Below are positions 5,029 to 54,865 of a stretch of DNA of 63,780 bases, one piece after another. Position 1 is the first letter of the stretch, and the number at the start of each line of letters is the position of its first letter. This DNA is from Bacteroidales bacterium (GTDB taxonomy: Bacteria; Bacteroidota; Bacteroidia; Bacteroidales; WCHB1-69), in contig JBGUMF010000004.1 of assembly GCA_045116675.1 (NCBI GenBank), positions 1 to 63,780 of the forward strand, read 5' to 3'. Position numbers and translations under genes: made by a program. The notes below the pieces were generated by a model. That model saw only the letters and a program-made list of their open reading frames with translations, was not told where the DNA came from and ran no database searches.

Positions 5029-5097
5029 TAATAGCTAATAATTGGTAGTGGTTTGGCTTTACGCCTGTTGCTTTTCACTATCAATTATTAGCTATTA
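5029..5097. terminator. long imperfect palindrome between convergent genes (candidate bidirectional terminator/structured element)
   Basis: 23-pair stem (5029-5051 with 5075-5097), including the perfect 15-mer aatagctaataattg/caattattagctatt, and a 23-nt loop. It lies between the GATase remnant (+) and the mutB stop (5119, -). Confidence 0.5.
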
Positions 5098-5118
5098 ACT
5101 ATAGACTAATTAGTCGCT

Positions 5119-15091: not shown

Positions 15092-15650
15092 AGAGATAAG
15101 CCATATCCACATCGTTCAACAGCTCCATCCCGCGCTCCGTGAGCAAAGGAAGAAGCAGGTAACGGATTATCTGGTCCTGATTCAAGCCCAAATCCTCTTC
15201 CACACATACATTGTGCAGGAAAAAGGTGGAATATAGGGGAATATTGATGTCCTCCTGGAAATGATATTGCCGTATTCCCTTTTGAATCAATGTGCTCAAA
15301 ATGCTCATAAAGGGAGAGTCGTCCGAGGTGAAAAGCTTGTGCTGCAGCGCATACTGAAAAAAGGTCTCTTCGGTTTTCCGGATGTTGCGCATCTCCCATA
15401 TAAACAGAAGCAGCTCCTCCACCGGATGGTTACATTCCAGACTTTTTTCACGAATGCGATCCTGAATGCACGTGTGCCAGAACTGCCGTGCAATCTCCAC
15501 CGATTGGGCCTTCCCCTCATAACGGTTGAAAAAGGTTTTACGGCTGATGCCCATGGCGGCCACAATCTCATCGGTTGTATGGTCAAAACCGTTTTTAAGA
15601 TAATAATGGAAAATATCGAATGTCTTCTGTTGATTCAGTGGTCGCTTCAT
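15075..15650 (-). CDS. TetR/AcrR-family transcriptional regulator
   Basis: 191 aa. N-terminal HTH (TTDEIVAAMGISRKTFFNRY). The 3' end overlaps the alaS 3' end by 17 nt (convergent). Confidence 0.6.
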   Translation of the reverse strand: MKRPLNQQKTFDIFHYYLKNGFDHTTDEIVAAMGISRKTFFNRYEGKAQSVEIARQFWHTCIQDRIREKSLECNHPVEELLLFIWEMRNIRKTEETFFQYALQHKLFTSDDSPFMSILSTLIQKGIRQYHFQEDINIPLYSTFFLHNVCVEEDLGLNQDQIIRYLLLPLLTERGMELLNDVDMAYLFSLPQ

Positions 15651-15661
15651 GGATAATGTCG

Positions 15662-16657
15662 TTAGTTGGATTTTGAAAGATGTTCCACCACCTCAGATTC
15701 CACCATGCTGCGGATATCAACAGCCTTAATCTGTTTCCCGTCATGTACATACAGGAAGGTTGGAAATTGGCCGTTCACCACCTCAATAGCGGTGAAGGGG
15801 TCAATGGTGACATACCGGAAATGTGTGGCACCGCTCTCCTCCTTGAATTTTTGGATGCTCTCATCTTTACCCCAGATGAAAAAGATAACCTTGTTGGTGT
15901 CCAAATGGTTGTTTTCAACGATGGAATTGAGTTTTTTACCGCTGGTTTTGCAATATTTACATCCGGCAGCCACATAACCTAAGACATAATTGCCTTCATC
16001 AATATCCAAGGATAATGCGATGGTGTCCTGCATGAATTCCTCGAAACGGGGTTCGTTGATGGTTTGCCCGTCGCGGTCAAAAAGATTCCAGACGGAGTCC
16101 ATGGGGAACAAGCCAAAGGGTGCGGCGAAGGCGGCTACGGCCAGCACAATCCCGACGGCTTTCCAGCCTTTGAATCGGGCGGGTTCATCTTTCCGTATCA
16201 GCAGCATCAACGCCATGGTTATGATGTTCTTGAGGATGGACCAGGTAGGATTCAGCTCCACTAAATCACCCATACAATGGCAGTTGGTATCCTGCCGGAA
16301 AAGAGCCACATAAATCAGAAGGAAGGTGAAACCCGCCAGCATAGCCATAGTCGTCCACCATACCGGTTTGTACAGGATTTTCAAGATGAGAAAGGCCCCC
16401 AGCAACAATTCGGCCATAATGACCAAGCGCGCCACTATAGTGCATAACAGATAGTTGAAGAGATGAAAACTGTATATGTACAGTTCGAAACTGTCGATAG
16501 AGAGCAGTTTCAAGATGCCCGTGGTGATTAAAAAGGCTCCTAACAACAGGCGAAGCACTGTTTTCAGCACGCGCACCGGCTGCCAGCGACGGGTAACCTC
16601 TTCGGGTTGGCTGTTATTGCCATATTCTGTTATGGGTTCTTGGATAATTTCATTCAT
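15662..16657 (-). CDS. MauE/DoxX-type membrane domain fused to a thioredoxin-like domain
   Basis: The N-terminal half has 4-5 TMs ending in the CxC motif TNCHCMG. The C-terminal soluble domain has CxxC (AAGCKYCKTSG). The ORF-track start at 16669 is a TTG, so I prefer the ATG at 16657 (MNEIIQ...). Confidence 0.6.
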   Translation of the reverse strand: MNEIIQEPITEYGNNSQPEEVTRRWQPVRVLKTVLRLLLGAFLITTGILKLLSIDSFELYIYSFHLFNYLLCTIVARLVIMAELLLGAFLILKILYKPVWWTTMAMLAGFTFLLIYVALFRQDTNCHCMGDLVELNPTWSILKNIITMALMLLIRKDEPARFKGWKAVGIVLAVAAFAAPFGLFPMDSVWNLFDRDGQTINEPRFEEFMQDTIALSLDIDEGNYVLGYVAAGCKYCKTSGKKLNSIVENNHLDTNKVIFFIWGKDESIQKFKEESGATHFRYVTIDPFTAIEVVNGQFPTFLYVHDGKQIKAVDIRSMVESEVVEHLSKSN

Positions 16658-16661
16658 AGCT

Positions 16662-18407
16662 TCAGTCAATATCTGGTTCTATTCCTTTGGGGATGGCCCC
16701 AATCAGTTTCTTGGTGTAATCCGTCTGCGGATGGTCGCAGATGGTGTCGGCATTATCCATTTCCACGATGCGGCCGTTCTGCATGACGGCAATCCGGTCC
16801 GACATGAAGCGGACCACAGAGAGGTCATGCGAGATGAAAATGTATGTGAAGTGGTATTCCTGCTTCAACTCGTTCAGCAGATTCAGCACTTGGGCCTGTA
16901 CGGACACATCGAGGGCGGAGACCGATTCATCACAGATGATGAAGCGCGGATTGACAGCCAGGGCGCGGGCAATGGAAATACGCTGGCGCTGGCCGCCGGA
17001 GAACTCGTGCGGATAGCGGTAAAAGTGCGACTCGTTGAGGTTTACCCGTTCCAGCAGGGCGATGGCTTTCGCACGCCGCTCCTTGTCATTTTGGCCAATG
17101 CCGTGCACCCGCATAGGCTCAATGAGCGCATCGCCAACAGTAAGTCTCTGGTTCAACGATGAATATGGATCTTGCAAGATAATCTGCAATTCCTTGCGCA
17201 TACGACGCATATCGGCACTGTTGAGGCTCATCAGGTTGGTGCCGCGGTAATGGACCTCCCCGGAGGTAGCCTCTATCAGCCGAATCATGCAGCGTCCTAA
17301 AGTGGTTTTGCCGCAACCGGATTCGCCTACCAGTCCGAGCGTTTCTCCCTCATAAACATCGAAGGTGATGTTCTCCAATGCCTGCACATATTGTCGTTTT
17401 TCAAATAGCTTCCGTTTGCGCACAGGGTACAGTTTGGAGATATTGCGAACGGAAATCATCGGCTTTTCGGCATACAGTTTCGCATGGAAAGACTGCCGTT
17501 CTTCCGTGGACACACATAATTTATCGAAGGTTTCGCGAATGCCCTCCTGCCTGTGCTGCATGAAGTCGTCCACGGTGGGCAGCTGGCGCAGGCGCACGCG
17601 CATAGAGGGTCTGCACGCCAGAAGCCCTTGTGTGTAAGGATGTTTTGGATTTAAAAACAGGTCCCTTACAGAGCCTTCTTCCACAATGTTCCCCTTGTAC
17701 ATCACCAGCACACGGTCGGCGATTTCCGCTACCACGCCTAAATCATGGGTTATGAAGAGGACACTCATGCCGTATTTGGCTTGCAGCTTGCGGATGAGTT
17801 CGAGGATGCCCTTCTGCACGGTCACGTCTAAGGCGGTGGTCGGCTCGTCGGCAATCAGCAGGTCGGGTTGGCAGCTCATGGCCATGGCGATCATCACGCG
17901 CTGCTTCTGCCCGCCGGAAAGCTCATGCGGGTAGGAATCGAAAATCTGCTCTGGGCGCGGGAGCATCACCTCCTTGAAGAGCTCGATGACGTGTTGGCGG
18001 GCGGCCTCCTTGTCCATACGGGTGTGCAAAAGCATCTGCTCCGTGATCTGCTGCCCGCACCGGATAACCGGGTTTAGCGAGGTCATCGGCTCTTGGAAAA
18101 TCATGGCGATCTTGTTGCCCCGGATACGCTCCATCTCATTTTCCGCGCAGCGCAACAGGTTGACTGTCGTGTCGGGCTGGGCAGGGTCGTGGAACAGGAT
18201 CTGCCCGTCGGGGTAGCGTGCGATGGAGGCGTTGAGCAGACGCATCACCGACAGCGCCGTCACCGACTTGCCGGATCCCGATTCGCCCACCACACCAAGG
18301 GTCTCGCCCCGTCCGATGTGGAACGAAAGCCCGTGAAGAATGGGATTCCATTCCTCATCTCGCTTCATCTCCAGCGCCAGATTCGTGATTTCGAGCAACT
18401 TTTCCAT
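16662..18407 (-). CDS. ABC transporter ATP-binding protein with two fused ATPase domains (Dpp/Opp/YejF-like)
   Basis: Two Walker A motifs ([16 protein letters not shown]) and two signature motifs ([16 protein letters not shown]). Start set at the ATG at 18407 ([10 protein letters not shown]...). The longer ORF runs through a terminator and a tRNA gene. Confidence 0.9.
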
Positions 18408-18415
18408 AGAAAGCG

Positions 18416-18423
18416 CAAAAGTA
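18416..18423 (-). promoter_or_regulatory. -7 promoter box (TACTTTTG) for the ABC ATPase operon
   Basis: Exact TAnnTTTG only 9 nt upstream of the ATG at 18407. This implies a very short or absent leader. Confidence 0.4.
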
Positions 18424-18451
18424 CAAAAAACATTTGGTTTGCAACGGGCAT

Positions 18452-18481
18452 AAAAAAACAGGCAGCAAATCTGCTGCCTGT
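18452..18481 (-). terminator. rho-independent terminator of tRNA-Lys
   Basis: 10-bp stem acaggcagca/tgctgcctgt with a 4-nt loop, followed on the minus strand by T7. It begins 2 nt after the tRNA 3' end. Confidence 0.8.
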
Positions 18482-18482
18482 C

Positions 18483-18558
18483 TGGTGTCTCAGCTGGGAT
18501 TCGAACCCAGGACCCCATCCTTAAAAGGGATGTGCTCTACCTGCTGAGCTACTGGGAC
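18483..18558 (-). tRNA. tRNA-Lys (anticodon UUU), CCA encoded
   Basis: A 76-nt cloverleaf folded by hand. D stem is GCTC/GAGC, anticodon stem CATCC/GGATG, loop CTTTTAA, T arm CTGGG-TTCGAAT-CCCAG, discriminator A plus CCA. There is one C4:A69 mismatch in the acceptor stem. Confidence 0.9.
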
Positions 18559-18580
18559 ATCCTTTCGCTTTTAGCGGCTG

Positions 18581-18588
18581 CAAAAGTA
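18581..18588 (-). promoter_or_regulatory. -7 promoter box (TACTTTTG) for tRNA-Lys
   Basis: Exact TAnnTTTG, 22 nt upstream of the tRNA 5' end. Confidence 0.45.
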
Positions 18589-18887
18589 CGATTTTTTCAT
18601 TACACTCTATCCATTCCCTTTATTTTTTTTGCTGTAATATTATATTTTATTGATAATCATTATGTTAATTATAATTTTAAATAAAAACGAAAAAACAACC
18701 ATAACGACAGAGTTTTTTCTATATTTGTGTTTTAACATACTGAATACAAATATGTTAAAAACAAAGTTCTATTTTTTGCACCCGATTGTAGGGAAACAGG
18801 GCATTTGTGTTGGAGATAAGTCGGAAAATGTATTTTTTCAAACAAATGACACTGAAAAACTGCAATCATAAAAGTCTCTTAAAACAG

Positions 18888-19127
18888 ATGAAAAAACTAA
18901 TCCTTACTCCGAAAAAAGACACATTAACCATTTGCCTGCCGCCGGACTGGGTGGGCAAACCGCTTGTCTGTATTTTGAAGGACCCGGACGAACAGGATGA
19001 GGGGATGATCTCGTATGTGAGTGATGTGTCCATCGGCTACCAGGCGGAACGTTACCGATGGGCCAAGCGGGGGCGCCGTCCCCGCCGTCATCGTTTGCGT
19101 AAAAAGAGTGTTGATGTGATTCTCTAA
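18888..19127 (+). CDS. small hypothetical protein (79 aa), weakly supported
   Basis: ATG at 18888 ([30 protein letters not shown]...) with a basic C-terminus. It lies at the edge of an AT-rich spacer and overlaps the folE stop by 4 nt (convergent). No family recognised. Confidence 0.25.
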
Positions 19128-19735
19128 TGCAGGTCGGCTCCGATGAGGTGCATGAATTCCTGGCGGGTGTTCTCGTTTTTCAGGAAGGCCCCGGTAAATT
19201 CCGATGTGGTAGTCACGGAGTTCTGCTTCTGGATGCCCCGCATAGACATACAGAGGTGCTGGGCTTCGATGACGACGGCCACGCCCAGGGGGTTCAGTAC
19301 CTCCTGGAGGCAGTCTTTGATCTGGGTGGTGAGGCGTTCCTGCAGTTGCAGACGGCGGGCGAAACACTCCACCACACGGGGGATCTTGCTCAACCCCACG
19401 ATGGTGCCGTTGGGGATGTATCCGATGTGCGCTTTCCCGAAGAAGGGCAGCAGATGATGCTCGCACATCGAGTATATTTCAATGTCTTTCACCACCACAA
19501 TCTGCTTGTAATCCTCATGAAACAAGGCACTTTTAAGAATGGCTTTGGGGTCCAGGCGATAGCCGTGGGTGAGGAAGTCAAGGGATTTGGCGGCCCGCAT
19601 CGGCGTCTTGATGAGGCCTTCCCGCTGGGGGTCTTCGCCAATGTTTTGCAAGAGTGAGCGATAGCTGTCGGAGAGCGCCGTCAGCTGATCTTCCGATAGT
19701 TTGGGTATCACATTGATGGAGTCTGTGATTTTCAT
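19124..19735 (-). CDS. folE: GTP cyclohydrolase I
   Basis: 203 aa with the FolE active-site block [19 protein letters not shown]. Confidence 0.9.
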
Positions 19736-19740
19736 ATTCT

Positions 19741-20439
19741 TTATACTAAATAAGGATTATACAGTTTCTCGTTGCCGACCGTGGTGAGACCGCCGTGGCC
19801 GGGGTAAATGTTCGTCTCGTCCGGGAGGGTGAGGATTTTGGTTTTGATCATCTCAATCAGCAGACGTCCGTTGCCGGTGGGCAGGTCGCTGCGCCCCACG
19901 CTACCCTCGAAAATCAGATCGCCGCAGATCACGTACCCGTTAGCGGCATCGTAGAGGGAAATGCTGCCGTCGCAGTGGCCCGGCGTGTACAGCACTTGCA
20001 GCGTCTGCTTGCCGAAACGCACCTCGTCACCCTCGTGCAGATAACGGTCCGGCTGCGGCATCTCATCGACCGAAAGCCCGAACGCCATCGCGTAGGCGTA
20101 CGACTTGTTGTAGATGGGCATCCCTGCCTCGTGACACCAGACAGGCGCCCCAAACGTACGGTGGCACCAATTGTTGCCGGCAATGTGGTCGATGTGCGGG
20201 TGCGTGTTCACGATGGCCTTGACAGTCAGCTTGTGCTGCCGGACGAACTCTTCCAGTTGGGCATCTTCATACGACTGGCAGTTGCCCGGATCCACAAGGA
20301 TAGCTTCGCCCGTGCCGTCATACAACACCAATGTATTGACTTGTATGGGGTTGAAATGGAATATCCGTATGTTGATGTTTTCCATGTTCTGGTTTAACGC
20401 GTTCATGAATTCCGAAATCGAGATGTGTTTCTTCCCCAT
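19741..20439 (-). CDS. MBL-fold metallo-hydrolase (glyoxalase II-like)
   Basis: HxHxDH motif ([13 protein letters not shown]). Start set at the ATG at 20439 (MGKKHISI...), directly after the stop of the upstream gene. Confidence 0.8.
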
Positions 20440-20440
20440 G

Positions 20441-21757
20441 TTAGAAGGGCTTGGATTTGGGATCTGAAACAAAGATGTCCCTCACCTTGTTCCCATTGGA
20501 GAACTGGGCACTGTAGTGCAGCCTGCCGTCGGGTTTCCAGCATGACCATTTCCCTTCGCGCAGATGATTCTTGAATTGGCCCTGGAAGTGCTTTTTACCA
20601 TTATTGTAATATTCGGTGAAGGTGCCGTTGGGGATGTCGTGAACAAAATTCTGCTCACGCACCTTGACCTCCTGCACATTATAGAACACCCATTTGCCTT
20701 CTTTCAGGTCGTTGGCGTATTTCCCTTTGGCGACAATCTTCCCGTTTTGAGCATACTCGGTCCAAGTGCCGTTCTTGAGGTTGTCTTTATAGGTGCCCTT
20801 ACGCGACATCTTGCCGTTCTCCTCCCAGAAATAGGTGTAGGGGCCATTCCATTTGTTTTGCTTGTAGGTGATGATGTATTTCTGTTTACCGTCATCGTAC
20901 CAGCCTTGCCACTGGCCATCCATTTCACCCTCCTTGAAGGTGCCTTTGTCTTGGGTTTGGCCGTTGTGGTAATAAGCGGTCCAGAGGCCGTTTTCCTTGT
21001 CGTGGGCAAAAGGCCCTTCGCGCTGCAGGCGACCGTCCTCGTACCAAGCTTTCCAGATGCCTTCGCGTTTGCCGTTCACATAATTGCCTTTTTTCCAGAC
21101 TTTTCCGTTTTCATAATAATAGACCCACTCGCCGTGTTGCAATCCGTTTTCAAAATTGCCCCGGCTGCCGAGCGTGCCGTTCTCGTGGTAGAATTTCCAT
21201 TCGCCCTGTTGCAAGCCTTTCACAGACGAGCCTTCCATATCTTTCTGGCCGTTGCGGGTCCACCAGCATGCGTAGCCGTCCAACTCGCCCATCTTGTAGG
21301 AGCCTTCAAAATATTTGGCCCCGTCATCAAAGTATTCCGTCACAGGACCGTCCACGCTGTCAGCCACATACGTCACCTCTTTGAATAACTTGCCATTGGT
21401 GTGGTAAAACGTCCAATTACCGCTTCGCTTGCCGTTGGCGAACTGGCCTTTCGACTCCACTTGGCCAGACTGGTACCAGCTGGTGAAGGGCCCGTTTTCG
21501 GCGTTGTACTCCTGGGCCAGCTTTCCGTTGTCGAACCACACTCTCCACACGCCCACCTTCTTCCCGTCGCGGTAGTCGCCCTCGGTCCATTTCATCCCAT
21601 TGATGTGATAATAGACCCAATGGCCCTGTTCCAGGCCTTGGGCCTCCACACCCACTGACATCAGTTTGTTGTTTTTCCAATAGGTCTTAACCGTATCTTG
21701 GGCACTGACGGTCAAGCATATCCATGCCAAGAGGATTACAAGAGATAAGTTGCGCAT
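20441..21757 (-). CDS. secreted MORN-variant / YwqK-type repeat protein
   Basis: 438 aa. Signal peptide (...LTVSAQ), then about 16 tandem ~23-aa repeats of the form G.W..YY.NGK....G.Y.NG...G.W. Confidence 0.7.
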   Translation of the reverse strand: MRNLSLVILLAWICLTVSAQDTVKTYWKNNKLMSVGVEAQGLEQGHWVYYHINGMKWTEGDYRDGKKVGVWRVWFDNGKLAQEYNAENGPFTSWYQSGQVESKGQFANGKRSGNWTFYHTNGKLFKEVTYVADSVDGPVTEYFDDGAKYFEGSYKMGELDGYACWWTRNGQKDMEGSSVKGLQQGEWKFYHENGTLGSRGNFENGLQHGEWVYYYENGKVWKKGNYVNGKREGIWKAWYEDGRLQREGPFAHDKENGLWTAYYHNGQTQDKGTFKEGEMDGQWQGWYDDGKQKYIITYKQNKWNGPYTYFWEENGKMSRKGTYKDNLKNGTWTEYAQNGKIVAKGKYANDLKEGKWVFYNVQEVKVREQNFVHDIPNGTFTEYYNNGKKHFQGQFKNHLREGKWSCWKPDGRLHYSAQFSNGNKVRDIFVSDPKSKPF

Positions 21758-21779
21758 ATTCTCATTTATTAAAAGCGTG

Positions 21780-21787
21780 CAAAGATA
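21780..21787 (-). promoter_or_regulatory. -7 promoter box (TATCTTTG) for the MORN-repeat/MBL/folE operon
   Basis: Exact TAnnTTTG, 23 nt upstream of the ATG at 21757. Confidence 0.5.
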
Positions 21788-21840
21788 CTACAAAATCCGA
21801 TATTTTGGAATTTGTTCGTGGAAATGTTGGTTTGGGGGAG

Positions 21841-21947
21841 TTAAGGGGTGTTGGGAATTGGGCTTGGGGGGTGGGGGTTAGCCGTTAGCTATTGGCCGTT
21901 GGCTTTTGGCATATATATTTCTCTACTATAAACTCTAAACTCTAATC
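21841..21947. repeat. intergenic repeat element, copy A (left border of the C10 island)
   Basis: Contains the 27-mer gccgttagctattggccgttggctttt (21881-21907), identical to 27453-27479. It is flanked by related taagggg-ttggga-ttggg and ctct..taaactctaaactcta segments in the same order and orientation as copy B. Confidence 0.8.
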
Positions 21948-21948
21948 T

Positions 21949-23772
21949 TCATTGTTTCACCACGCGTTTTACCACTGCGCCGCTGTCCGTCTCCACGCGC
22001 AGCACATACACGCCCGCACACAACTCCCGAACATCCACCTCCGCCATGTTGGCATTCACATTCACTGTTTTCAACAGCTTCCCATATACATCGTAAAGCC
22101 GTATCCTATTCACTATTCCCTGTTCACTGACCACTGTAACCTGTGTCTGTGTGGGATTGGGGTAGATGTGAACGTAATCCTTTACGGTTGGTGTTTTGTG
22201 CAATGTGTTTTGGTCCGTCGTTAGCCTTTGGCTCCTGTTCTCCATGATTTGTGCTGGGTTAAAACGTGATGGTGTGTCATCACACGATGCGCATGGGGTG
22301 ATATAAGCATGAAAATCACTTCCTTGCGCAGCATGAAAACCATCGCGTAAAACGATTTCCTTGTGGGCGGCGTATTCGGAAGAGGCTCCCGAGGGGATTA
22401 TATGCCATGACGAGGGGAATGCACTGTTGTTGGCCGAACTTAGGAGCACCGCGGCTGCGTGGGGCACATTGTTGTACGATACCGGCGAGGTGTTTCCTTG
22501 TATATTGTAATAATCATCGTAATATTGCTCTAATGGCAAAATGAAATTGCAGTAGTCCTGCGTTGTGGCCGGATAGATGTTGAACACAGCCCGCTCCAGA
22601 TGATTCCAGTTATAGTTCCCGTCACCGTTGTGCTCAACAATACTGTCAATCGTACACCATGCATCAATTCCGCTTATATGCCCCCAATTGAAATGAAACA
22701 TGTCCGTAGCACTGTTATATCCGTCGCAGACAAAGGCATGGGCTCCCGTGTTATAATTGCTTGCATAATAGGACATTCCCGCATATAATACAGGCATTCC
22801 CATAATTAAATCTCCTTTTAGCAGATTTTTCCATGAAGACGTTGAATAATCCGATCGTATCAATCGTACAGCATCCGGATGATAACCGAAGGAGTCCACA
22901 AGGGCATTGCGCGCTTTAATAGGGGTGGTGAATGATTGACACGATAAACCTCCTATACAATAATCCATATCTGCCGCTTCTCCACAATCTGCCATCAAAC
23001 GGGCGATGGCGTTGCGCTCATTCTCAAAATTAGGGTTAATAAGAAGAACCCCATTAGAATCGATGTACAGTCCCAAAAGGTCCACCATATTACACCAATC
23101 ATACGGTTCCATCCTATTGGGTCTATAGATAGGATACTTCCAATAGTTCATGATTTGCGCCATGGCCGTGGCCACACAACCCGTGGGACATTTCCTTCCA
23201 CTCACGCTCGCACAAGAACATATGTGATAGGATTTTTTTACAAAATAATTAAAAGATTCACATGTGTTGTAGATATCTTTTGTTTGGTCCCACTTTGTAG
23301 TTAAAAAGGGTCCGTAAATTGTATTGGTTGTGCGGATAACTTCTGCGGACGGATCCAACAGCTCAGACCATTGCGGGTGCTCCTCTTGGTGCCGAAGGCT
23401 GTCAACCATATATCCAATGGAGAAACTGTAACCCCGAATAAAATATTTCAATCCCTCGGGAATGGAGACTGTGTCCGACAGCAGTCTTCCGCCTTCGGTG
23501 GTGTACATCAATACAGGAAGACAATTCTTCCACGAGGAAAGAACAACACTCAAACCGTTATCAAAGGATATTTCCCTCATCCTCAAATCAGGCCCGGACC
23601 GAAACTCAACAACCGTGTCAATTCGGGTTTCGTCCAGAGTATGATATTGCAGGTATCGTTGCGCAAAGTTCACGGCAGCCCTTCTGCTTTCCTCTATCGT
23701 GACGGCTGTCTGGGCTGACAGACACCATGAAGATGCAGTTATCAGTATTATAAACAAAATACTATTTTTCAT
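21949..23772 (-). CDS. C10 family (streptopain/SpeB-like) cysteine peptidase with N-terminal propeptide and T9SS C-terminal sorting domain
   Basis: 607 aa. Catalytic Cys block is GCVATAMAQIMNYWKYP and the His block is GAHAFVCDGYN. N-terminal pro-region is AAVNFAQRYL. C-terminal CTD is HIYPNPTQTQVTVV...VYVLRVETDSGAVVKRVVKQ. Confidence 0.85.
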   Translation of the reverse strand: MKNSILFIILITASSWCLSAQTAVTIEESRRAAVNFAQRYLQYHTLDETRIDTVVEFRSGPDLRMREISFDNGLSVVLSSWKNCLPVLMYTTEGGRLLSDTVSIPEGLKYFIRGYSFSIGYMVDSLRHQEEHPQWSELLDPSAEVIRTTNTIYGPFLTTKWDQTKDIYNTCESFNYFVKKSYHICSCASVSGRKCPTGCVATAMAQIMNYWKYPIYRPNRMEPYDWCNMVDLLGLYIDSNGVLLINPNFENERNAIARLMADCGEAADMDYCIGGLSCQSFTTPIKARNALVDSFGYHPDAVRLIRSDYSTSSWKNLLKGDLIMGMPVLYAGMSYYASNYNTGAHAFVCDGYNSATDMFHFNWGHISGIDAWCTIDSIVEHNGDGNYNWNHLERAVFNIYPATTQDYCNFILPLEQYYDDYYNIQGNTSPVSYNNVPHAAAVLLSSANNSAFPSSWHIIPSGASSEYAAHKEIVLRDGFHAAQGSDFHAYITPCASCDDTPSRFNPAQIMENRSQRLTTDQNTLHKTPTVKDYVHIYPNPTQTQVTVVSEQGIVNRIRLYDVYGKLLKTVNVNANMAEVDVRELCAGVYVLRVETDSGAVVKRVVKQ

Positions 23773-23776
23773 CGTT

Positions 23777-24313
23777 TCAGAAATTCAAGGTTATCCCCAC
23801 TCCATGGCGTGTCGGGCCGAACGACAGGGAAACAGGATAGGATTTTTGATTATAGGAAGAGGCAACACGGTCCAACTTCTTGTAACTGTCAAGAGTTAAG
23901 ATAAGAGCAGGGATTACTTCTAATATAGAAACCCCAAAACAAAAACCTCCAAAAATCATATCAATTAAATCCTCGAAATGTCGAGGCCCACCCACCATAA
24001 AATATTCAACATAAATCAAATCGCAAACCCAATATGTTGCTGCCGTCAGGCTAATTCCGCTCAGGACCCACAGTGGGATGGCGGCAATGAGTTCGCGGCG
24101 GGCTTTGCGATACAGGGTGAAGTCTTCGGAGGAAAGGGTGTTTTGCAAAGATGTCCTGTCCATCCTCATTCCGTTGTCGCCATTATAAAGGCGGCCGCGA
24201 ATACGCTCCAGATGAACAGGCGAAGTCTCAAGTGTTTTACCCAACGTGTCTTGGGCTGACAGGCACCATGTAGATGCGGTTATCAGTAATATGAACAAAA
24301 TACTTTTTTTCAT
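23777..24313 (-). CDS. small signal-peptide + 2-TM protein, paralogue 3 of an island-specific family
   Basis: 178 aa. Layout is signal peptide, ~55-aa soluble domain (LERIRGRLYNGDNGMRMDRTSLQNTLSSEDFTLYRKARR), two hydrophobic helices, and a conserved tail ...LDSYKKLDRVASSYNQKSYPVSLSFGPTRHGVGITLNF. Its stop is 4 nt before the protease ATG. Confidence 0.7.
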   Translation of the reverse strand: MKKSILFILLITASTWCLSAQDTLGKTLETSPVHLERIRGRLYNGDNGMRMDRTSLQNTLSSEDFTLYRKARRELIAAIPLWVLSGISLTAATYWVCDLIYVEYFMVGGPRHFEDLIDMIFGGFCFGVSILEVIPALILTLDSYKKLDRVASSYNQKSYPVSLSFGPTRHGVGITLNF

Positions 24314-24378
24314 CGTTTCAGAAATGTAAGTTTCTTTTATTGTGACGTTTATTGTCGTTCAATTCGAATTGTATTGAT

Positions 24379-24948
24379 TTAAAAACGGATTCCGATTCGC
24401 ATTGCGGGACCAGGGTAGCTAATGTCACAGCCTAGAAGAGCATACACACTTTTCCCATCTTTAAATCTATAATTGCACCCCGAAAAGAAGGAGATGTTGT
24501 AATAAACACCTCTTACCTCCTCCCAGCGTACTGGATTCTGGTCTTTTTTGCCCTGTGTGTACATGCCTACATTCCAATTAAGCATCAGCAACGGGGACCA
24601 TTTGAATTTTTTTAGCACAAGATAGCGCAAATTCAAGCCGGTTGAAAAACCAAGCGCATGGAATCCAGCTTCATGCTGGTACTGTCTGAAGGAAATGTTG
24701 TCGTATTTAAACTCCAAATCCAGTCCCACAACCAGATGTTGTCTGATAAGAATACCATGAGTTTCCCGGACAGACACACCCCGAGTGCATGAATTATTAT
24801 TTTTATAAAGACGAATTCCAAAACCGGCACCTACATCTATGGCATGATAGTATTCTATATGCTTCTTTGGGGGTTGGTTCTCCGATTGTGCCATACCGCA
24901 TATACATCCAAATAGAAGGATGAACAGGATTGAAATATTCGTTTTCAT
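24379..24948 (-). CDS. small outer-membrane beta-barrel-like protein
   Basis: 189 aa. Signal peptide, alternating hydrophobic/aromatic strand pattern, and C-terminal ...AMRIGIRF ending in Phe (OMP beta-signal-like). Confidence 0.5.
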   Translation of the reverse strand: MKTNISILFILLFGCICGMAQSENQPPKKHIEYYHAIDVGAGFGIRLYKNNNSCTRGVSVRETHGILIRQHLVVGLDLEFKYDNISFRQYQHEAGFHALGFSTGLNLRYLVLKKFKWSPLLMLNWNVGMYTQGKKDQNPVRWEEVRGVYYNISFFSGCNYRFKDGKSVYALLGCDISYPGPAMRIGIRF

Positions 24949-24951
24949 TGT

Positions 24952-25512
24952 CTAAAAATTCAGGGTTATCCCCACCCCATGGCGTGTCGGTCCGAAGGAC
25001 AGGGAAACTGGGTTCGTTTTTTGATTGTAGGAAGAAGCAACGCGGTCAATCTTCTTGAAACTGTCGAGTGTCAGTGTGATAGCAGGTGTAAAAAACACTA
25101 TTGAGACGAGTACGGCAAATCCACAAAAGCATCCACAGAAAATATCATCTACAGGATAAAACTCGTATTCGTCATACGGGAACGTCGTGTGTTTGAAATA
25201 TACATGGTAAGATATCGCTTCATACCCCCAATAGGTGGCCGCTCCCAAACAAATTCCGCTTAACGCCCAGAAAGGTATGGCAGCAATGTACTTTCGGCGG
25301 GCCTTCTGATAAAGGGCATAGTCATCTTGGGAAAGAATTTGACATAAAGATGTATTGTCTAATTTCATACCCGTTTCCCTATCACACAATCGGCCGCGAA
25401 CACGCTCCAATTGAACAGGCGAAGCCTCATGTGTTTTACCCAACGTGTCTTGGGCTGACAAGAACCATGTAGATGCGGTTATCAGTATTATGAACAAAAT
25501 ACTTTTTTTCAT
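24952..25512 (-). CDS. small signal-peptide + 2-TM protein, paralogue 2
   Basis: 186 aa with the same architecture and the same C-terminal ...VASSYNQKTNPVSLSFGPTRHGVGITLNF. Confidence 0.7.
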   Translation of the reverse strand: MKKSILFIILITASTWFLSAQDTLGKTHEASPVQLERVRGRLCDRETGMKLDNTSLCQILSQDDYALYQKARRKYIAAIPFWALSGICLGAATYWGYEAISYHVYFKHTTFPYDEYEFYPVDDIFCGCFCGFAVLVSIVFFTPAITLTLDSFKKIDRVASSYNQKTNPVSLSFGPTRHGVGITLNF

Positions 25513-25516
25513 CGTT

Positions 25517-26050
25517 TCAGAAATTCAAGGTTATTCCCACCCCGTGGCGTGTCGGCCCGAACGACAGGGAAACAGGATAGGATTTTTGATTATAGGAAGA
25601 AGCAACATGGTCCAACTTCTTGTAACTGTCCAATGTGAGAATGATGGCGGGTATGAAAGTTATCAGTGACATACCTAATGCTGAACAGCCCAAAATAAAA
25701 TAAACTAAAGATCCTCCGGCATCGGAATATGGTACATGAAAATAAGTGAGATCAATCATTGCACAATACCAGTTTGTTGCAAGTGTCAAGAAAACTCCAC
25801 TCAACGTCCACAGCGGGATGGCGGCAATGAGTTCGCGGCGGGCTTTCCGATACAGGGTGAAGTCTTCGGAGGAAAGGGTGTTTTGCAAAGATGTCCTGTC
25901 CATCTTCATTCCATTGTCGCCATTATAAAGGCGGCCGTAGTAACGCTCCAGATGTGTTGGGAAAGTACCTGTGGTGTCGTTTTTTGGATTTTGAGCGTAC
26001 AATGTGATCGACGACAGAGCCATAATCAACAACAAAATACTTTTTTTCAT
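25517..26050 (-). CDS. small signal-peptide + 2-TM protein, paralogue 1
   Basis: 177 aa with the same architecture. The start overlaps the stop of the upstream gene by 4 nt (ATGA). Confidence 0.7.
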   Translation of the reverse strand: MKKSILLLIMALSSITLYAQNPKNDTTGTFPTHLERYYGRLYNGDNGMKMDRTSLQNTLSSEDFTLYRKARRELIAAIPLWTLSGVFLTLATNWYCAMIDLTYFHVPYSDAGGSLVYFILGCSALGMSLITFIPAIILTLDSYKKLDHVASSYNQKSYPVSLSFGPTRHGVGITLNF

Positions 26051-27075
26051 CGTTCTGCCTCCTTTTCCTCCAATTGTTGAATCCTGTTTTCAAGGTCAAG
26101 AATATACAGCGTCATTTCTTCTATCTTCTTTAACAGCAGCATATTCATATCTCCGAGGTCCACACCGTTCTGTTGCACTTCCGAAGCGGTCGGTACCTCG
26201 GGCAGATGTCCATTGGATAGCACAAAATTTCTCAAATCCTGCAAATCCATCAAAGGGTAAGTCTTTTCAAAAACATAGTCGGGCCAGCAGGGACTGCCGC
26301 CAAGGGACACACGTACCTCCTTGGCACAAATATTGCCGTTGACCGTAAGCTTTGCCAATGGCGTGTTGGTTCCAATACCGACATTCCCGCTGTCGGACAG
26401 GAACAATCCATAATTGAATCCTGCGTTATAACAATCCCATACTTTCCAAAAATTCAGTCCAAAGCCGTCCGTGGCATTGTTCACGTATTCAATTCCCCAA
26501 GACCCGTAAGGACATGTATTGTTAACCTCGGATCCAAATAGAAGAGATCCATTGGTGGAGCCCGGAGCCTTAGCAGATGTACGTGAAATCAAGATGTTTT
26601 CATCCACAACGTGAATCTTCTGCTTGGGCTTTGACGTATTGAAACCCACATAACCGTTCGTGTCAACAACCAAGCCATGCCCATTATTCATGATTTTGAG
26701 GTTAGCCTTCTCACATTGATGAATGGAAGCCTCTATTCCTGATAGTTGAAAGACAAATCCATCATGTACAGTTGCACCGGTACTGCTATTTGTCAGTCGA
26801 AGGTTGTTGTTTGTTGGTTTTTGAAGTGGGTTATGTAAATGAAGGTTGGAAACAGGAGATTCTGTTCCAAGACCTATATAATAGTTATTTGAAGGCACAC
26901 ATACACGTGAGATATTATTAGTCTTGATTATGAAAGGGACGGCAGTGGTTGTCCCAATAAAAGAACTGGATGTGGCATTGCTGTTTCCTGTAAGTGACCA
27001 GTAGTTTGTCTGTGATTTAGCTGTCATAAAAGCAAAACAAACTAAAAAAAGGACAAACGTAAATTTTTTAAACAT
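26047..27075 (-). CDS. secreted tail-fibre-like protein with conserved C-terminal WPDYVF...HLP...LL.KIEE..LY module and terminal coiled coil
   Basis: Start set at the ATG at 27075 (MFKKFTFVLFLVCFAFMTAKSQ). N-terminus is W.LTGN...FIGT...NVGIGTNTPLAKLTVNG. The C-terminus CWPDYVFEKTYPLMDLQDLRNFVLSNGHLPEVP...MLLLKKIEEMTLYILDLE resembles the Bacteroidota 'tail fiber domain-containing protein' family as I remember it. Confidence 0.6.
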   Translation of the reverse strand: MFKKFTFVLFLVCFAFMTAKSQTNYWSLTGNSNATSSSFIGTTTAVPFIIKTNNISRVCVPSNNYYIGLGTESPVSNLHLHNPLQKPTNNNLRLTNSSTGATVHDGFVFQLSGIEASIHQCEKANLKIMNNGHGLVVDTNGYVGFNTSKPKQKIHVVDENILISRTSAKAPGSTNGSLLFGSEVNNTCPYGSWGIEYVNNATDGFGLNFWKVWDCYNAGFNYGLFLSDSGNVGIGTNTPLAKLTVNGNICAKEVRVSLGGSPCWPDYVFEKTYPLMDLQDLRNFVLSNGHLPEVPTASEVQQNGVDLGDMNMLLLKKIEEMTLYILDLENRIQQLEEKEAER

Positions 27076-27119
27076 GACATTGAATTTTATAGTAGTTGTT
27101 TTTTTTGTTTTTCGTGCGA

Positions 27120-27127
27120 CAAAGATA
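27120..27127 (-). promoter_or_regulatory. -7 promoter box (TATCTTTG) for the island operon
   Basis: Exact TAnnTTTG, 45 nt upstream of the ATG at 27075. Confidence 0.5.
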
Positions 27128-27157
27128 TACATTTCTTTTCGAAAATGGGACTGGAAA

Positions 27158-27179
27158 AAAGTGAGGGTACCATCACTTT
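27158..27179. promoter_or_regulatory. 22-bp near-perfect palindrome upstream of the island promoter (candidate operator)
   Basis: aaagtgagggtaccatcacttt has 10 of 11 positions complementary around a central GGTACC. It lies about 30-50 nt upstream of the -7 box. Confidence 0.35.
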
Positions 27180-27395
27180 CGTCAAATTTTTTCTGCATTC
27201 ACCCCATATATTGAATTTTCACCCCAAAAAGATGGAAATTTCATTTTTTTTGTCTAACAAATAGAAAAAGGTCCGGAAAAATCCTCTGGCCTTTTCGCAC
27301 ATGTATGCCTTTCGCGGCGGGCACACCTTTTCTTCGCGGCACACGTCTGCCGCGCCGCGATATTGTGTGCGGCGGCCTTATTCCTACAGATATGC

Positions 27396-27419
27396 AACGC
27401 CTAACGGCGTTTTTTTTTT
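27396..27419 (+). terminator. orphan plus-strand intrinsic terminator
   Basis: Stem aacgcc/ggcgtt with loop taac, followed by T10 and then directly by G9. No plus-strand ORF lies upstream of it. Confidence 0.5.
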
Positions 27420-27432
27420 GGGGGGGGGTGAT

Positions 27433-27509
27433 GTAAGGGTATTGGGAGTTGGGCCGTTAGCTATTGGCCGTTGGCTTTTTCTCTCAACTCTAAACTCTCA
27501 ACTCTAAAC
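27433..27509. repeat. intergenic repeat element, copy B (right border of the C10 island)
   Basis: Same 27-mer (27453-27479) and the same flanking segment order as copy A. It lacks the ~18-nt G-rich insert of copy A. The tail is ctctcaactctaaa x2. Confidence 0.8.
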
Positions 27510-27540
27510 GAAAGACGGCGGAATCTCCTTTCTTGTTTTT

Positions 27541-27562
27541 GAGACGCGATGAATCGCGTCTC
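27541..27562 (-). terminator. perfect 9-bp hairpin 3 nt after the stop of the Na+ symporter gene
   Basis: gagacgcga-tgaa-tcgcgtctc. There is no T-tract on the minus strand. Confidence 0.45.
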
Positions 27563-27565
27563 TAC

Positions 27566-28918
27566 TTACCCAATAATGCCGGAAATGATGATGATAATGA
27601 GGGCCAACGGGGCTAAATAGCGCAGCACAAAATAGTACAGCTCGAACGCCTTGGCCTTGATGGCACCACCGTTAGAGAGCTCGTCGCGCACTTCCGCCTT
27701 CGGGAAGAACCAGCCCAAGAAAATGGTCATCAGCAGGGCCCCAATGGGCATCAGGTAGGAAGCGGTGAGGAGGTCGAAGAGATCGAAGATAGTGCGGCTG
27801 AAGATGTGGAAATCTTTCAGGACGCCGAATGAAAGGGTGCAGAATACGCCGATGACGAAGACCAACAACGTGCTGACAAAGGAGGCTGTGCGCCGTTTCC
27901 AATGGAGCTCCTCCACGGCAAAGGCCACTAAGATTTCCAATAGGGAAATGGTGGAGGTGAGTGCGGCAATGCCCAGTAACACGAAGAAAATGACGGCGAA
28001 GATGGTGCCCGCTGGCATGCTGTTGAACACATTGGGCAGCACAATATACACGAGCTCCGGGCCGCTGGCCGGGTTCATCCCGAAGGCGAACACAGCGGGG
28101 AAGATGACGATGCCCGCTAAGATGGCCACCACAGAATCACAGCCGGCAATCCACAGGCTGGTGGGGAAGAGTTTGTCCTGCTTGCGGATGTAGGAGCCGT
28201 AGGTCACCATGGCGCCCATGCCGATGCTGAGAGAAAAGAACGACTGCCCCAGAGCGGAAAGTATGCAGGTGCCATTGAGTTTACTGAAATCGGGTTTGAA
28301 CAGAAAACGAAGGCCTTCCGCCGCTCCGTCGAGGGTGACCGAGCGCACGCACATGAGCAGAAGAAGCAGGAAGAGTATGGGCATCAGCACTTTGCTCACC
28401 TTTTCAATGCCTTTTTGAACTCCCATAGTGATGACGGTGGCGGTTAGCGTCAGGAATAACAGTTGATACAACAATGGCCAGAAAGAGCCTTGCGTGAAGT
28501 CGGAGAACAGGGACGTGATGGCTGCCGGGTCCTTGCCGGCAAGGCCGCCGCTACAGGAGAGTACGATGTAGTTGAGCGTCCAGCCGGCCACCACGCTGTA
28601 AAATGCGTAGATGAGGAAGGCGGCCACAATGCCGAACACGCCCAGCATCATCCAACCTTTGCTGCCGTTGCTCAACTTGCGGTAGGCACCCACCACATTG
28701 CTCTGCGAACGACGCCCGATGATGAACTCCGTCATCATCAGCGGGACACCTATCAGCATGACGAAAAACACGTACACTAACAGGAACGCGCCGCCGCCAT
28801 TTTGTCCCACCATGTAGGGGAAACGCCATATATTGCCCAAACCGACGGCACCGCCGGCCGCCGCCAAAATCGCACCAAGGTTGGAGGTGAAACCTCTCTG
28901 AGAGTTCGTTGTTGCCAT
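27566..28918 (-). CDS. sodium-dependent transporter (neurotransmitter:sodium symporter/SNF family)
   Basis: Family signature GLGNIWRFPYMVGQNGGGAFL and about 12 TMs. The ORF-track start at 28927 is a TTG, so I prefer the ATG at 28918 (MATTNSQ...). Confidence 0.9.
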   Translation of the reverse strand: MATTNSQRGFTSNLGAILAAAGGAVGLGNIWRFPYMVGQNGGGAFLLVYVFFVMLIGVPLMMTEFIIGRRSQSNVVGAYRKLSNGSKGWMMLGVFGIVAAFLIYAFYSVVAGWTLNYIVLSCSGGLAGKDPAAITSLFSDFTQGSFWPLLYQLLFLTLTATVITMGVQKGIEKVSKVLMPILFLLLLLMCVRSVTLDGAAEGLRFLFKPDFSKLNGTCILSALGQSFFSLSIGMGAMVTYGSYIRKQDKLFPTSLWIAGCDSVVAILAGIVIFPAVFAFGMNPASGPELVYIVLPNVFNSMPAGTIFAVIFFVLLGIAALTSTISLLEILVAFAVEELHWKRRTASFVSTLLVFVIGVFCTLSFGVLKDFHIFSRTIFDLFDLLTASYLMPIGALLMTIFLGWFFPKAEVRDELSNGGAIKAKAFELYYFVLRYLAPLALIIIIISGIIG

Positions 28919-28936
28919 AATTTTCAATTAAGGCGG

Positions 28937-28944
28937 CAAAGATA
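28937..28944 (-). promoter_or_regulatory. -7 promoter box (TATCTTTG) for the Na+ symporter gene
   Basis: Exact TAnnTTTG, 19 nt upstream of the ATG at 28918. Confidence 0.5.
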
Positions 28945-28986
28945 AACAAATCACACTTTGGATACTATACTTTTTTGTTTTTTTGC

Positions 28987-28994
28987 TATTTTTG
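28987..28994 (+). promoter_or_regulatory. -7 promoter box (TATTTTTG) for the lipoprotein-purN pair
   Basis: Exact TAnnTTTG, 35 nt upstream of the ATG at 29029. Confidence 0.45.
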
Positions 28995-29028
28995 CGCCTC
29001 TATTATTTTGAAATAAAACTCTTTAAAA

Positions 29029-29451
29029 ATGAAAAAGTTAATGATTCTGATGGCGACTTGTTGCCTGGTATTCGCATCTTGCAACAAGAAAGCGAAAGAG
29101 GAACCCCTCCAAACCCCAGAACAGCAAGAGATGTCTGAAAAACAGAAACAGCGCATGCAGGATCGCGAGGATTGGGTTAGTTGGGAGAATCTGACAGATG
29201 AACGCAAGGCCGAACTGCTGAACAAGAGCAAGGCAGCCTACGACAAGCAGAAAGCCGCCCAAGAGGAAAGAGAAGCCCGCAAAGCCAAATTCGAAGAGGC
29301 TATGGCGAATTGGGACAATCTCTCCTTGGATGAAAGAAGAGCCGCTTTCGAACTGATATATCCGTCTCGTCCCGAAAGCAAAGGTGAGTGCAAGGACGAG
29401 GATAAATGTTCCCAAGAGGGTGACAAGCCCTGTGACAAAGAAAAGAAATAA
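29029..29451 (+). CDS. Lys/Glu-rich lipoprotein, function unknown
   Basis: 140 aa. Lipobox is LVFAS|C. The sequence is highly charged and helical-looking. Its stop overlaps the purN ATG. Confidence 0.5.
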   Translation: MKKLMILMATCCLVFASCNKKAKEEPLQTPEQQEMSEKQKQRMQDREDWVSWENLTDERKAELLNKSKAAYDKQKAAQEEREARKAKFEEAMANWDNLSLDERRAAFELIYPSRPESKGECKDEDKCSQEGDKPCDKEKK

Positions 29452-30017
29452 TGCATACAATCGCAGTATTCGCATCGGGCTTCGGCTCCAACTTCCAAGC
29501 CCTGATTGAGGCGGTGCAACAGCATACGCTGGATGCCCGCATTGCCCTTCTGGTGACCGACAAACCGGGTTGCATGGCCGAGCAAAGGGCTGTTAACCAT
29601 GGTATTGACGTGTTTGCCTTCTCGGCAAAGGATTACGATGGAAAGGTCGCGTACGAGACGGCTATCCTGCAGGAGCTTCGCAAGCGGGATGTGGAGTACA
29701 TCGTCTTGGCTGGCTACATGCGTTATATTGGCAAGGTTCTGTTGGAGAACTTCCCCATGCGCATCATCAACCTCCATCCGGCACTACTACCCTCTTTCCC
29801 GGGAGCGCACGGCATTGCGGATGCCTATAACCATGGTGTGAAAGTGTTCGGCATCACCATCCATTTTGTGGACGAAGGCGTAGATACCGGCCGCATCATC
29901 GACCAGTTCGCCTTCCATGCCGAGGACCATGAAACGCTGGAAGAAATTGAAACGAAAATCCACCAGTTAGAACACCAATACTACCCGCTCACCGTCAATA
30001 AAGTGGTGAACGGGTAA
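29451..30017 (+). CDS. purN: phosphoribosylglycinamide formyltransferase
   Basis: 188 aa with IAVFASGFGSNFQALIEA and INLHPALLPSFPG. Confidence 0.9.
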   Translation: MHTIAVFASGFGSNFQALIEAVQQHTLDARIALLVTDKPGCMAEQRAVNHGIDVFAFSAKDYDGKVAYETAILQELRKRDVEYIVLAGYMRYIGKVLLENFPMRIINLHPALLPSFPGAHGIADAYNHGVKVFGITIHFVDEGVDTGRIIDQFAFHAEDHETLEEIETKIHQLEHQYYPLTVNKVVNG

Positions 30018-30029
30018 TTTTCCCCTTAT

Positions 30030-35728: not shown

Positions 35729-35805
35729 CTGCAAATATAGGGAAAAAAGTTCAATAATCAAAGGGTAAATCGAGTTGTTTTATGAAGAAAATGTCAATCC
35801 GCAAC

Positions 35806-36327
35806 TTACGACAGATATACGTCGATGAGGCCTTCCGGGGCGCTGATGTGCAGAACCCTGTTGTCACGGTCCACGCGTGTGACGAACTGATGGCTGGCAG
35901 GAATGAGGATTTCAGTGCCGTCGTGGTCCACCACCATGATGGGGTTGTTGCTGACTTCCAGAAACTCGCGGCACTTGCCGATGTCACCTTTTGCGGCATC
36001 CGTGACGGTGAAGCCGATGACTTCGTGGAAATAGAATCGGTTGTCGGGCAGCTTGGGGAGGTCGCTGAGGGGCAGGAAGAGCTCCACACCGACCAGATCG
36101 CGGGCCTCGTTGACGTCCACCCCCTCGAACTGGAGGATGAACTGGTTATTGCCGCGGCAAGTGATACTTTCGATGGAGAAGGGGATTTTCTCGCCGTCCA
36201 AGTCAAGGAAAACGGCGGCGAGGTTGTGGTAGTTTTCGGGATGGTCGGTATCAAAAAAGGCACACAGACCACCCTTCAGTCCGAAAGGTTTGGTCAGTGT
36301 GCCTAAATAGAAGAATTCGCTTTCCAT
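35806..36327 (-). CDS. rimM: 16S rRNA processing protein RimM
   Basis: 173 aa. FYLGTLTKPFGLKGGL and a PRC-barrel C-terminus. Its start overlaps the rpsP stop. Confidence 0.85.
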   Translation of the reverse strand: MESEFFYLGTLTKPFGLKGGLCAFFDTDHPENYHNLAAVFLDLDGEKIPFSIESITCRGNNQFILQFEGVDVNEARDLVGVELFLPLSDLPKLPDNRFYFHEVIGFTVTDAAKGDIGKCREFLEVSNNPIMVVDHDGTEILIPASHQFVTRVDRDNRVLHISAPEGLIDVYLS

Positions 36328-54817: not shown

Positions 54818-54865
54818 TCAACAAATCAACAAATCAACAAATCAACAAATCAACAATTCAACAAA
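54818..54865. repeat. 8-bp tandem repeat, 6 units (tcaacaaa; one unit tcaacaat)
   Basis: Read directly from the sequence. It lies between the giant gene's terminator and the lipoprotein promoter. Confidence 0.9.

Follow-up and report, generated by a model that had tools for sequence, protein, structure and literature searches.

The stretch analyzed here, a 63,780-nt window of contig JBGUMF010000004.1 from a rumen Bacteroidales bacterium, contains an operon for a C10 cysteine peptidase with a sorting domain of the type IX secretion system (T9SS), placed between a gene for a MORN-repeat protein and a gene for a sodium:neurotransmitter-family symporter (SNF). The operon is bracketed by elements A and B, two composite arrays of 7-nt units that share an identical 27-mer. 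Based on comparisons among the genomes of the genus, we consider it probable that this accessory operon was moved by illegitimate recombination and carried generic heptamer arrays along. Coordinates refer to the whole window unless a contig or locus is named; the genome under study (G000) is a 2.49-Mb metagenome bin of 106 contigs, and G024 denotes its sister species.

The segment is present in one species and absent at the same place in the other. In the sister species, whose flanking DNA is 88-90% identical, the SNF and MORN genes are 50 nt apart, the conserved MORN leader directly adjoins the SNF stop codon, and the spacer contains no array or repeat copy. The initial annotation had suggested looking for an empty site with a single repeat copy; an empty site exists, but it holds zero copies. 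In blastn comparisons, the colinear blocks of both genomes stop at 21805 and resume at 27563. Missing from the sister species are 5,757 bp, which hold the operon with its control region as well as A and B, 35 nt on the left side of A, a palindromic hairpin and a dispersed repeat ("X"). The breakpoints, 21805/21806 and 27562/27563, are located 35 nt and 53 nt outside elements A and B, respectively, and the junction shows a microhomology of TT only (2 nt), or imperfectly TAYTT (5 nt), with no target duplication. Gain and loss mediated by the repeats, as first proposed, thus holds for the presence/absence polymorphism, which is real, but not for the role of the repeats, since the breakpoints lie outside both of them. 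[quoted passage not shown] Among the genus members, only G024 and a third species (G006) keep the MORN gene beside the symporter, synteny elsewhere being uninformative, and this type of operon was found in 7 of the 25 genus genomes, at various loci.

The 27-mer GCCGTTAGCTATTGGCCGTTGGCTTTT is exact at 21881-21907 and 27453-27479, both times on the + strand as the initial annotation had stated, and 100 dinucleotide-preserving shuffles gave 0 matches. The related G-rich upstream and CTCT-containing downstream segments described there are also present at both copies, as TTGGGNN-type units 5′ of the core and CTCTNAA units 3′ of it. Both elements consist of head-to-tail 7-nt units that satisfy a regular expression for at least three units, and heptad phasing is kept throughout, from the G module over the TTRGCYN core to the CTCTNAA module; Tandem Repeats Finder (TRF) reported a period of 7 or 14 at 21881-21910, 21925-21945 and 27481-27509. 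On the + strand, the folding z-scores of the composite elements were +1.1 for A, -1.5 for B and -4.3 for a further copy on contig C77 of the same genome, folds of the - strand were weak, and no Rfam family was found in 21000-28500 at E <= 1. A strand-specific hairpin formed by G-U pairing of the G-rich and CTCTNAA modules was discarded as a general account, because only the C77 copy folds better than its shuffles; the genes of the window would transcribe the strand opposite to the one tested for this idea.

A search for the 27-mer across the genome, proposed in the initial annotation as a check, gave the outcome unfavorable to its reading: the element is a generic intergenic repeat at many unrelated loci. 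At up to 3 mismatches, the 27-mer is found at 7 loci of the genome, namely A, B and five more. TTRGCYN arrays of at least 3 units occupy 14 loci, against 0 in shuffled genomes. Across the genus, 22 of 25 genomes have the four-unit TTRGCYN pattern, a genome giving up to ~260 matches and the reversed control ~0; of 16 other genera in the order, just one has it. A genome-wide TRF run assigned period 7 to 227 of 1,328 rows, and 71% of these are intergenic, compared with 8-20% for periods 6, 9 and 12. These rows combine into 140 intergenic loci, whose many unit families (AATTAAC/AATTAAT, AAAGTTC, AATAGTG and others) are often strung together.

These loci prefer the ends of genes. In 80 of the 140 (57%), a stop codon is no more than 25 nt away, compared with 26.5 (19%) expected from random intergenic placement, while 19 lie beside a start codon only, compared with 23 expected; these statistics use crude gene calls based on open reading frames (ORFs). 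Stop triplets on both strands occur in 62% of the consensus units versus 18% of random intergenic heptamers, and 82 of 91 stop-adjacent arrays carry a sense-strand stop triplet in each unit, a figure to which the same gene calls lend some bias. Since 7 is no multiple of 3, three stop-bearing units close all three frames. Long composite arrays may also show a stepwise drift of their unit (AATTGAC to AATTAAC to AATTAAT to AGTTCAT and so on), as at C104:17768-17847, C102:33565-33667 and C37:50588-50683; they usually begin at or overlap a stop codon, and most of their units have stop triplets on both strands. As to what the arrays do, several roles are plausible ones that we infer: they may be tolerated in 3′ spacers as slippage-prone simple repeats, may act as spacers or insulators through three-frame stops, or may interfere with transcription through their G-rich and C-rich tracts.

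Within this generic family, the 27-nt identity is a feature of the genome under study. At up to 1 mismatch, the 27-mer occurs in 5 of its 14 core arrays, and genomes with more than 200 arrays have 0-1 copies; in the sister species, the arrays orthologous to A and to the C77 copy lack it and have their units in other orders. Recent copying or gene conversion among the arrays of this genome is the best explanation of the identity, and such homogenization means that arrays exchange sequence. The identity is neither a duplicated target nor an att site.

The sister species has its operon on another contig (C23), between a coaE-like gene and a lipoprotein-mutS gene pair. The flanks of that site correspond to contigs C31 and C77 of our genome, where C31 goes on with housekeeping genes and C77 begins with two secreted-protein genes. 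Directly behind the C10 stop codon of the sister operon stand two tandem array copies, the second of which aligns with element A through the stop codon, identifying A as the operon's own 3′ trailer. A further array is located at the opposite side of that operon, next to a control region (locus L049, 13117-13294) that is homologous to 27110-27250 of the window and to C77:1967-2158, the counterpart in our genome of the DNA beside the sister operon. Additionally, a C10 cluster of a further genome (G003) lies next to genes homologous to the lipoprotein gene and the two secreted-protein genes of C77. Taken together, these observations favor, without proving it, the mutS-side locus as the older home of the operon, with the MORN-symporter spacer as the derived one. 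At L049 8255-8290 (C23) of the sister species, the coaE-like ORF runs into a TTRGCYN array, from which its final codons and its stop derive (...E F G R stop); the coaE-like gene of our genome has another ending (...GAGGGAATGTAA).

The operon is a recombining mosaic. Compared with that of the sister species, it is 97-100% identical at 22003-22400 and 100% identical in nucleotides at 23703-24302, a stretch that takes in most of small paralogue 1, whereas identity falls to 54-74% in the protease core (22600-23400) and is ~76% over the upstream genes. The stretches of 100% identity exceed the 88-90% identity of the flanks, which indicates recent exchange between the lineages. The number of small paralogues with two transmembrane segments (2-TM) varies as well: our genome has three plus the barrel-like gene, the sister species has two, and variants with fewer paralogues were seen as a 1,199-bp skip in sequencing runs X2 and X3 and as a 1,740-bp skip in a metatranscriptome contig (X42). 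On this contig the first gene and a small paralogue are co-transcribed, the metatranscriptome contigs being too sparse to place transcript ends. The catalytic middle of the C10 gene (22600-23400) is hypervariable, with skipped or replaced stretches in runs X2, X3 and X5 between ends that are 97-100% identical, which points to shuffling of alleles in the protease domain or to diversifying selection on it.

In the scenario that we favor, A and B belong to a lineage-wide class of TTGGGNN, TTRGCYN and CTCTNAA arrays, which fill intergenic spacers of the genus, mostly right behind stop codons. A six-gene operon, predicted to encode a secreted protein, three small membrane paralogues, a barrel-like protein and the T9SS-exported C10 peptidase, occupies the symporter-MORN spacer, together with its promoter region and both arrays, only in the species under study. 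Recombination independent of any recombinase and at the level of microhomology would have moved or re-acquired the operon, most likely into the MORN-SNF site in the lineage under study, and the 3′ trailer array A and the upstream array B would have traveled with it. Several points weigh against this scenario. The direction of the event is not proven, and a microhomology deletion in the sister species together with an independent copy elsewhere gives the same picture. The MORN-SNF slot of G006 holds yet another gene, which encodes a different, T9SS-tailed protein of 613 aa. At the other operon site, the positions where synteny between our genome and the sister species is lost (L049 8266 and 13034) coincide exactly with edges of arrays, and two of the four other block ends in the window also lie beside tandem arrays, so that the arrays may have a causal role in rearrangement. 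Finally, all genomes compared are metagenome bins.

Two of the block ends are worth describing in their own right. At 5077-5115 our genome has a heptamer array where the sister species has a canonical hairpin-plus-T terminator (C6:19430-19465), behind the stop codon of the same conserved gene. The other has an octamer array, TCAACAAA in six copies (54818-54865), and four copies of AATAGTG (55088-55117), with TTRGCYN arrays in the matching position of the sister species (C6:64727-64800).

It is possible, although rather unlikely, that the MORN-SNF location is the ancestral one, that the sister species lost the segment through a microhomology deletion, and that its copy between coaE and mutS goes back to an earlier duplication or transfer. 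The 2 nt (imperfectly 5 nt) of junction microhomology fit a deletion, but this deletion would need to end exactly at the SNF stop codon. The overall identity of the operon to that of the sister species (76-86%), lower than that of the flanks, fits two old paralogous copies of which each species kept one; nevertheless, the duplication of the control region within our genome, in the island and on C77, points to the mutS side as the source, and G003 ties the C10 cluster to homologues of the C77-side genes. The unrelated gene in the slot of G006 also speaks against an ancestral position there.

A larger role for the arrays was weighed in two forms. The broader one, which we regard as doubtful, is that the arrays are not just remnants of slippage but substrates of recombination or gene conversion, and possibly insulators through three-frame stops or termination, and that they delimit exchangeable slots for T9SS-cargo operons without a recombinase. 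If true, it would amount to cassette shuffling of such operons within and between species of a rumen genus, with no recombinase needed. The narrower form is that the heptamer arrays are active recombination substrates in which ectopic exchange shifts cargo operons between slots and an exchange of A with B can delete the operon; we judge it improbable. The match of the synteny breaks at the other operon site with array edges is in its favor, and in X3 a contig diverges precisely where the core array starts (21877), as one in X2 does at the border between the core and the following module (27480), but alignments tend to stop at repeats in any case. Similarly, homogenization of the 27-mer implies exchange between arrays, whereas the breakpoints of the segment itself lie outside both arrays and its empty site contains none. 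Candidate A-B deletion joints in Logan contigs all showed either extra letters or sides shorter than 30 nt, as other array loci typically do, and were assigned to these.

That the segment is a site-specific integrative island, with the two repeats as attL and attR, is very improbable. It would account for direct repeats in the same orientation around an AT-richer, patchily distributed segment, yet the empty site carries no repeat and the breakpoints fall outside the repeats, which already contradicts it, and the repeat occurs at many unrelated loci. Pfam and NCBIfam gave no integrase or transposase family for any of the six ORFs, as the initial annotation had noted from the ORFs themselves; no tRNA target adjoins the island, the only tRNA gene of the window (Lys, 18483-18558) being 3.2 kb away; and blastn gave no match of the island to plasmid and phage collections.

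Composition, which had been taken as a sign of horizontal acquisition, was evaluated for the whole segment. The GC content of 21806-27562 is 44.0%, compared with 51.5% and 53.1% in the flanks, so the lower GC claimed earlier is real, although the gap is smaller than spot counts had suggested. Genome-wide windows of 5.76 kb have a mean of 51.2 +/- 3.0%, and a GC content as low as that of the island is seen in only 3.1% of these windows. GC content at third codon positions (GC3) is 0.42-0.50 in the six operon genes (4th-11th percentile), 0.69-0.75 in the flanking MORN and SNF genes and 0.55-0.68 in the other C10 paralogues of the genome. Composition is thus atypical. Nevertheless, homologous operons in other genus members are 2-6 GC points below their surroundings at 5 of 6 loci; as the bias is common to the operon family elsewhere in the genus, it belongs to the family and is no mark of recent foreign origin, for which low GC is weak evidence. 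A separate short low-GC stretch (35-42%) surrounds the tRNA-Lys gene at 18250-19000.

A chimera of assembly or binning, with the operon joined through repeated arrays, has hardly any probability left: the bin has 106 contigs, several ending in related repeats, and shares 100%-identical stretches with another species, but independently assembled Logan contigs (k=31) of the probable source run (X1) span both junctions, covering MORN-A-C10 (4,539 nt) and B-SNF (3,867 nt) with 0 differences, a ~97% identical strain from another study (X5) has the same joins at both junctions, word depth is even over island and flanks, and the 27-nt identity is shorter than assembly word sizes. No contig across an empty MORN-SNF site was found in the four runs X1, X2, X3 and X5. 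The independent spanning contigs and the absence of empty-site contigs indicate that the arrangement is real and fixed in the species within the sample. Contigs of X2 and X3 match to 21803 and then continue with GAGGAGTTTGTTTGTTGAAATG..., which we read as a diverged allele of the left end of the island (TGGAATTTGTTCGTGGAAATG...).

The features of the segment and its flanks are listed below. All genes between and around elements A and B are on the - strand.

Features of the MORN-SNF region (window coordinates; nt, nucleotides; aa, amino acids)
Feature	Coordinates	Strand	Basis
MORN-repeat protein, flanking gene, 93% aa identity to sister species	20441..21757	-	profile search, comparison
MORN gene leader, kept in sister species up to 21805; TAtcTTTG box	21758..21805	-	alignment
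Segment missing from MORN-SNF spacer of sister species, 5,757 bp	21806..27562	.	blastn blocks 15001-21805 and 27563-30019 abut in sister species
Element A, G-rich heptad module (TTGGGNN-like, G-quadruplex-type G runs)	21836..21877	+	sequence, alignment of composite elements
Element A, core array, five TTRGCYN units including 27-mer 21881-21907	21878..21912	+	TRF, regular expression
Element A, CTCTNAA module, abuts C10 stop codon (21949-21951)	21921..21948	+	TRF, alignment
C10 cysteine peptidase with T9SS C-terminal sorting domain, 607 aa	21949..23772	-	Pfam Peptidase_C10 4e-36, Por_Secre_tail 1e-12; TIGR04183 2e-14
Small paralogue 1, 178 aa, with signal peptide, hydrophobic segments and C-terminal ...GITLNF	23777..24313	-	protein comparison
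189-aa protein, signal peptide, beta-barrel-like C-terminal Phe	24379..24948	-	weak OmpX-like match only
Small paralogue 2, 186 aa	24952..25512	-	protein comparison
Small paralogue 3, 177 aa	25517..26050	-	protein comparison
Secreted ~342-aa protein, likely start at MFKKF signal peptide	26047..27075	-	ORF listed to 27198 through non-coding control DNA
Promoter/control region with TAtcTTTG box	27110..27250	-	paralogous to C77:1967-2158; homologous to DNA beside sister operon
Dispersed repeat X, hairpin and T10 at end	27310..27419	+	8 or more copies, several of them where contigs end
Element B, G9 run and G-rich heptad module	27420..27452	+	sequence, alignment of composite elements
Element B, core array, identical 27-mer	27453..27479	+	exact match
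Element B, CTCTNAA module, 4 units	27480..27509	+	TRF, regular expression
Palindromic hairpin GAGACGCGATGAATCGCGTCTC just past SNF stop codon; right end of indel	27541..27562	.	fold z = -4.1; present in all four samples
Sodium:neurotransmitter-family symporter (SNF), flanking gene, 96% aa identity to sister species	27566..28927	-	profile search, comparison

The TAtcTTTG box is presumably a Bacteroidetes -7-like promoter element. Neither the four small proteins nor the 383-aa ORF at 26047-27198 matched a family in Pfam or NCBIfam; the C-terminal ~115 aa of the secreted protein read from this ORF form a domain common in Bacteroidales. Repeat X is GC-rich and ~100 nt long, is followed by G9 in the window, folds with z = -2.6 on the - strand and has no Rfam match; further copies are located at C43:5-107, C67:8-82, C30:5-79, C14:22100-22174, C64:8476-8523, C98:2543-2581 and C47:5620-5650. 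As several contigs of the bin end exactly at this repeat, the repeat or its homopolymer run breaks assemblies, and it may be a small RNA or a unit like the repetitive extragenic palindromic sequences. Palindromes nearly identical to the hairpin beside the SNF stop codon are dispersed in the genome as well (C87:15840-15867, C82:4397-4421, C74:9384-9411, C86:8446-8468 and C37:56017-56040). This hairpin was rejected as the SNF terminator: it is stable, but on the sense strand an A-rich rather than a U-rich tract follows, and it is called a hairpin only. Elsewhere in the comparison with the sister species, a 1.2-kb insertion was seen in its contig C6 (44470-45714) relative to 35765-35807 of the window.

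The arrays and the operon are new examples of kinds already known, namely heptameric intergenic simple repeats and a place-changing accessory C10 peptidase operon. Intergenic heptamer repeats have been described as GGGAATC in Xanthomonas and GGGGA(T/C)T in Nostoc, where these G-rich units lie within 50 bp of stop codons and between co-oriented genes (Rehm et al. 2015, PMC4692102). The same paper cites three tandem heptanucleotides in Calothrix PCC 7601, and heptanucleotide long simple sequence repeats (LSSRs) of Mrazek et al. 2007 are summarized in PMC4679880. Like these, the arrays reported here are tandem 7-nt units at very many intergenic loci of one lineage; as in Xanthomonas and Nostoc, they favor spacers of co-oriented genes and the first ~50 nt after the stop codon, sometimes overlap it, and include G-rich versions with G-quadruplex potential. 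Unlike them, they belong to rumen Bacteroidales, a different phylum, with other units (TTRGCYN, CTCTNAA, AATTAAC/AATTAAT) and more families; additionally, several of their unit families follow one another in a set order within composites of ~70-110 nt that recur at several loci, and a four-unit word has been homogenized within one genome. TAACTGA direct repeats have been reported in Beggiatoaceae, cyanobacteria and a few Bacteroidetes (MacGregor 2015, PMC4679880), and Bacteroidetes intergenic regions with several kinds of heptamer repeat are described in the same work. They resemble our arrays in being intergenic heptamers that place stops in all three frames and sometimes overlap stop codons, but their sequence is different and they lie mostly just upstream of start codons, whereas our arrays are enriched after stops and not at starts. 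Systems of this kind have been reported mainly from Xanthomonas, cyanobacteria and Beggiatoaceae; the rich modular array system linked to stop codons, here spread through a genus, is the more intriguing by-product of this analysis. The arrays also call for caution in finding islands in Bacteroidales bins, as identical direct repeats around an AT-richer block can come from generic heptamer arrays.

In Bacteroides fragilis, C10 protease loci lie on DNA inserted into the genome (Thornton et al. 2010, PMC2873492). Our operon shares with these SpeB-like loci an accessory distribution that varies between strains or species, co-transcription with small partner genes, and changes of location. In B. 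fragilis, however, the carriers are conjugative-transposon-like and excisable prophage-like elements, while the segment reported here is 5.8 kb long and has no recombinase or transfer genes; the small genes that accompany its peptidase are 2-TM paralogues and have no staphostatin-like match, and the peptidase has a T9SS sorting domain. In this uncultured rumen lineage, T9SS C10-peptidase operons thus change loci and recombine between species while carrying no recombinase of their own.

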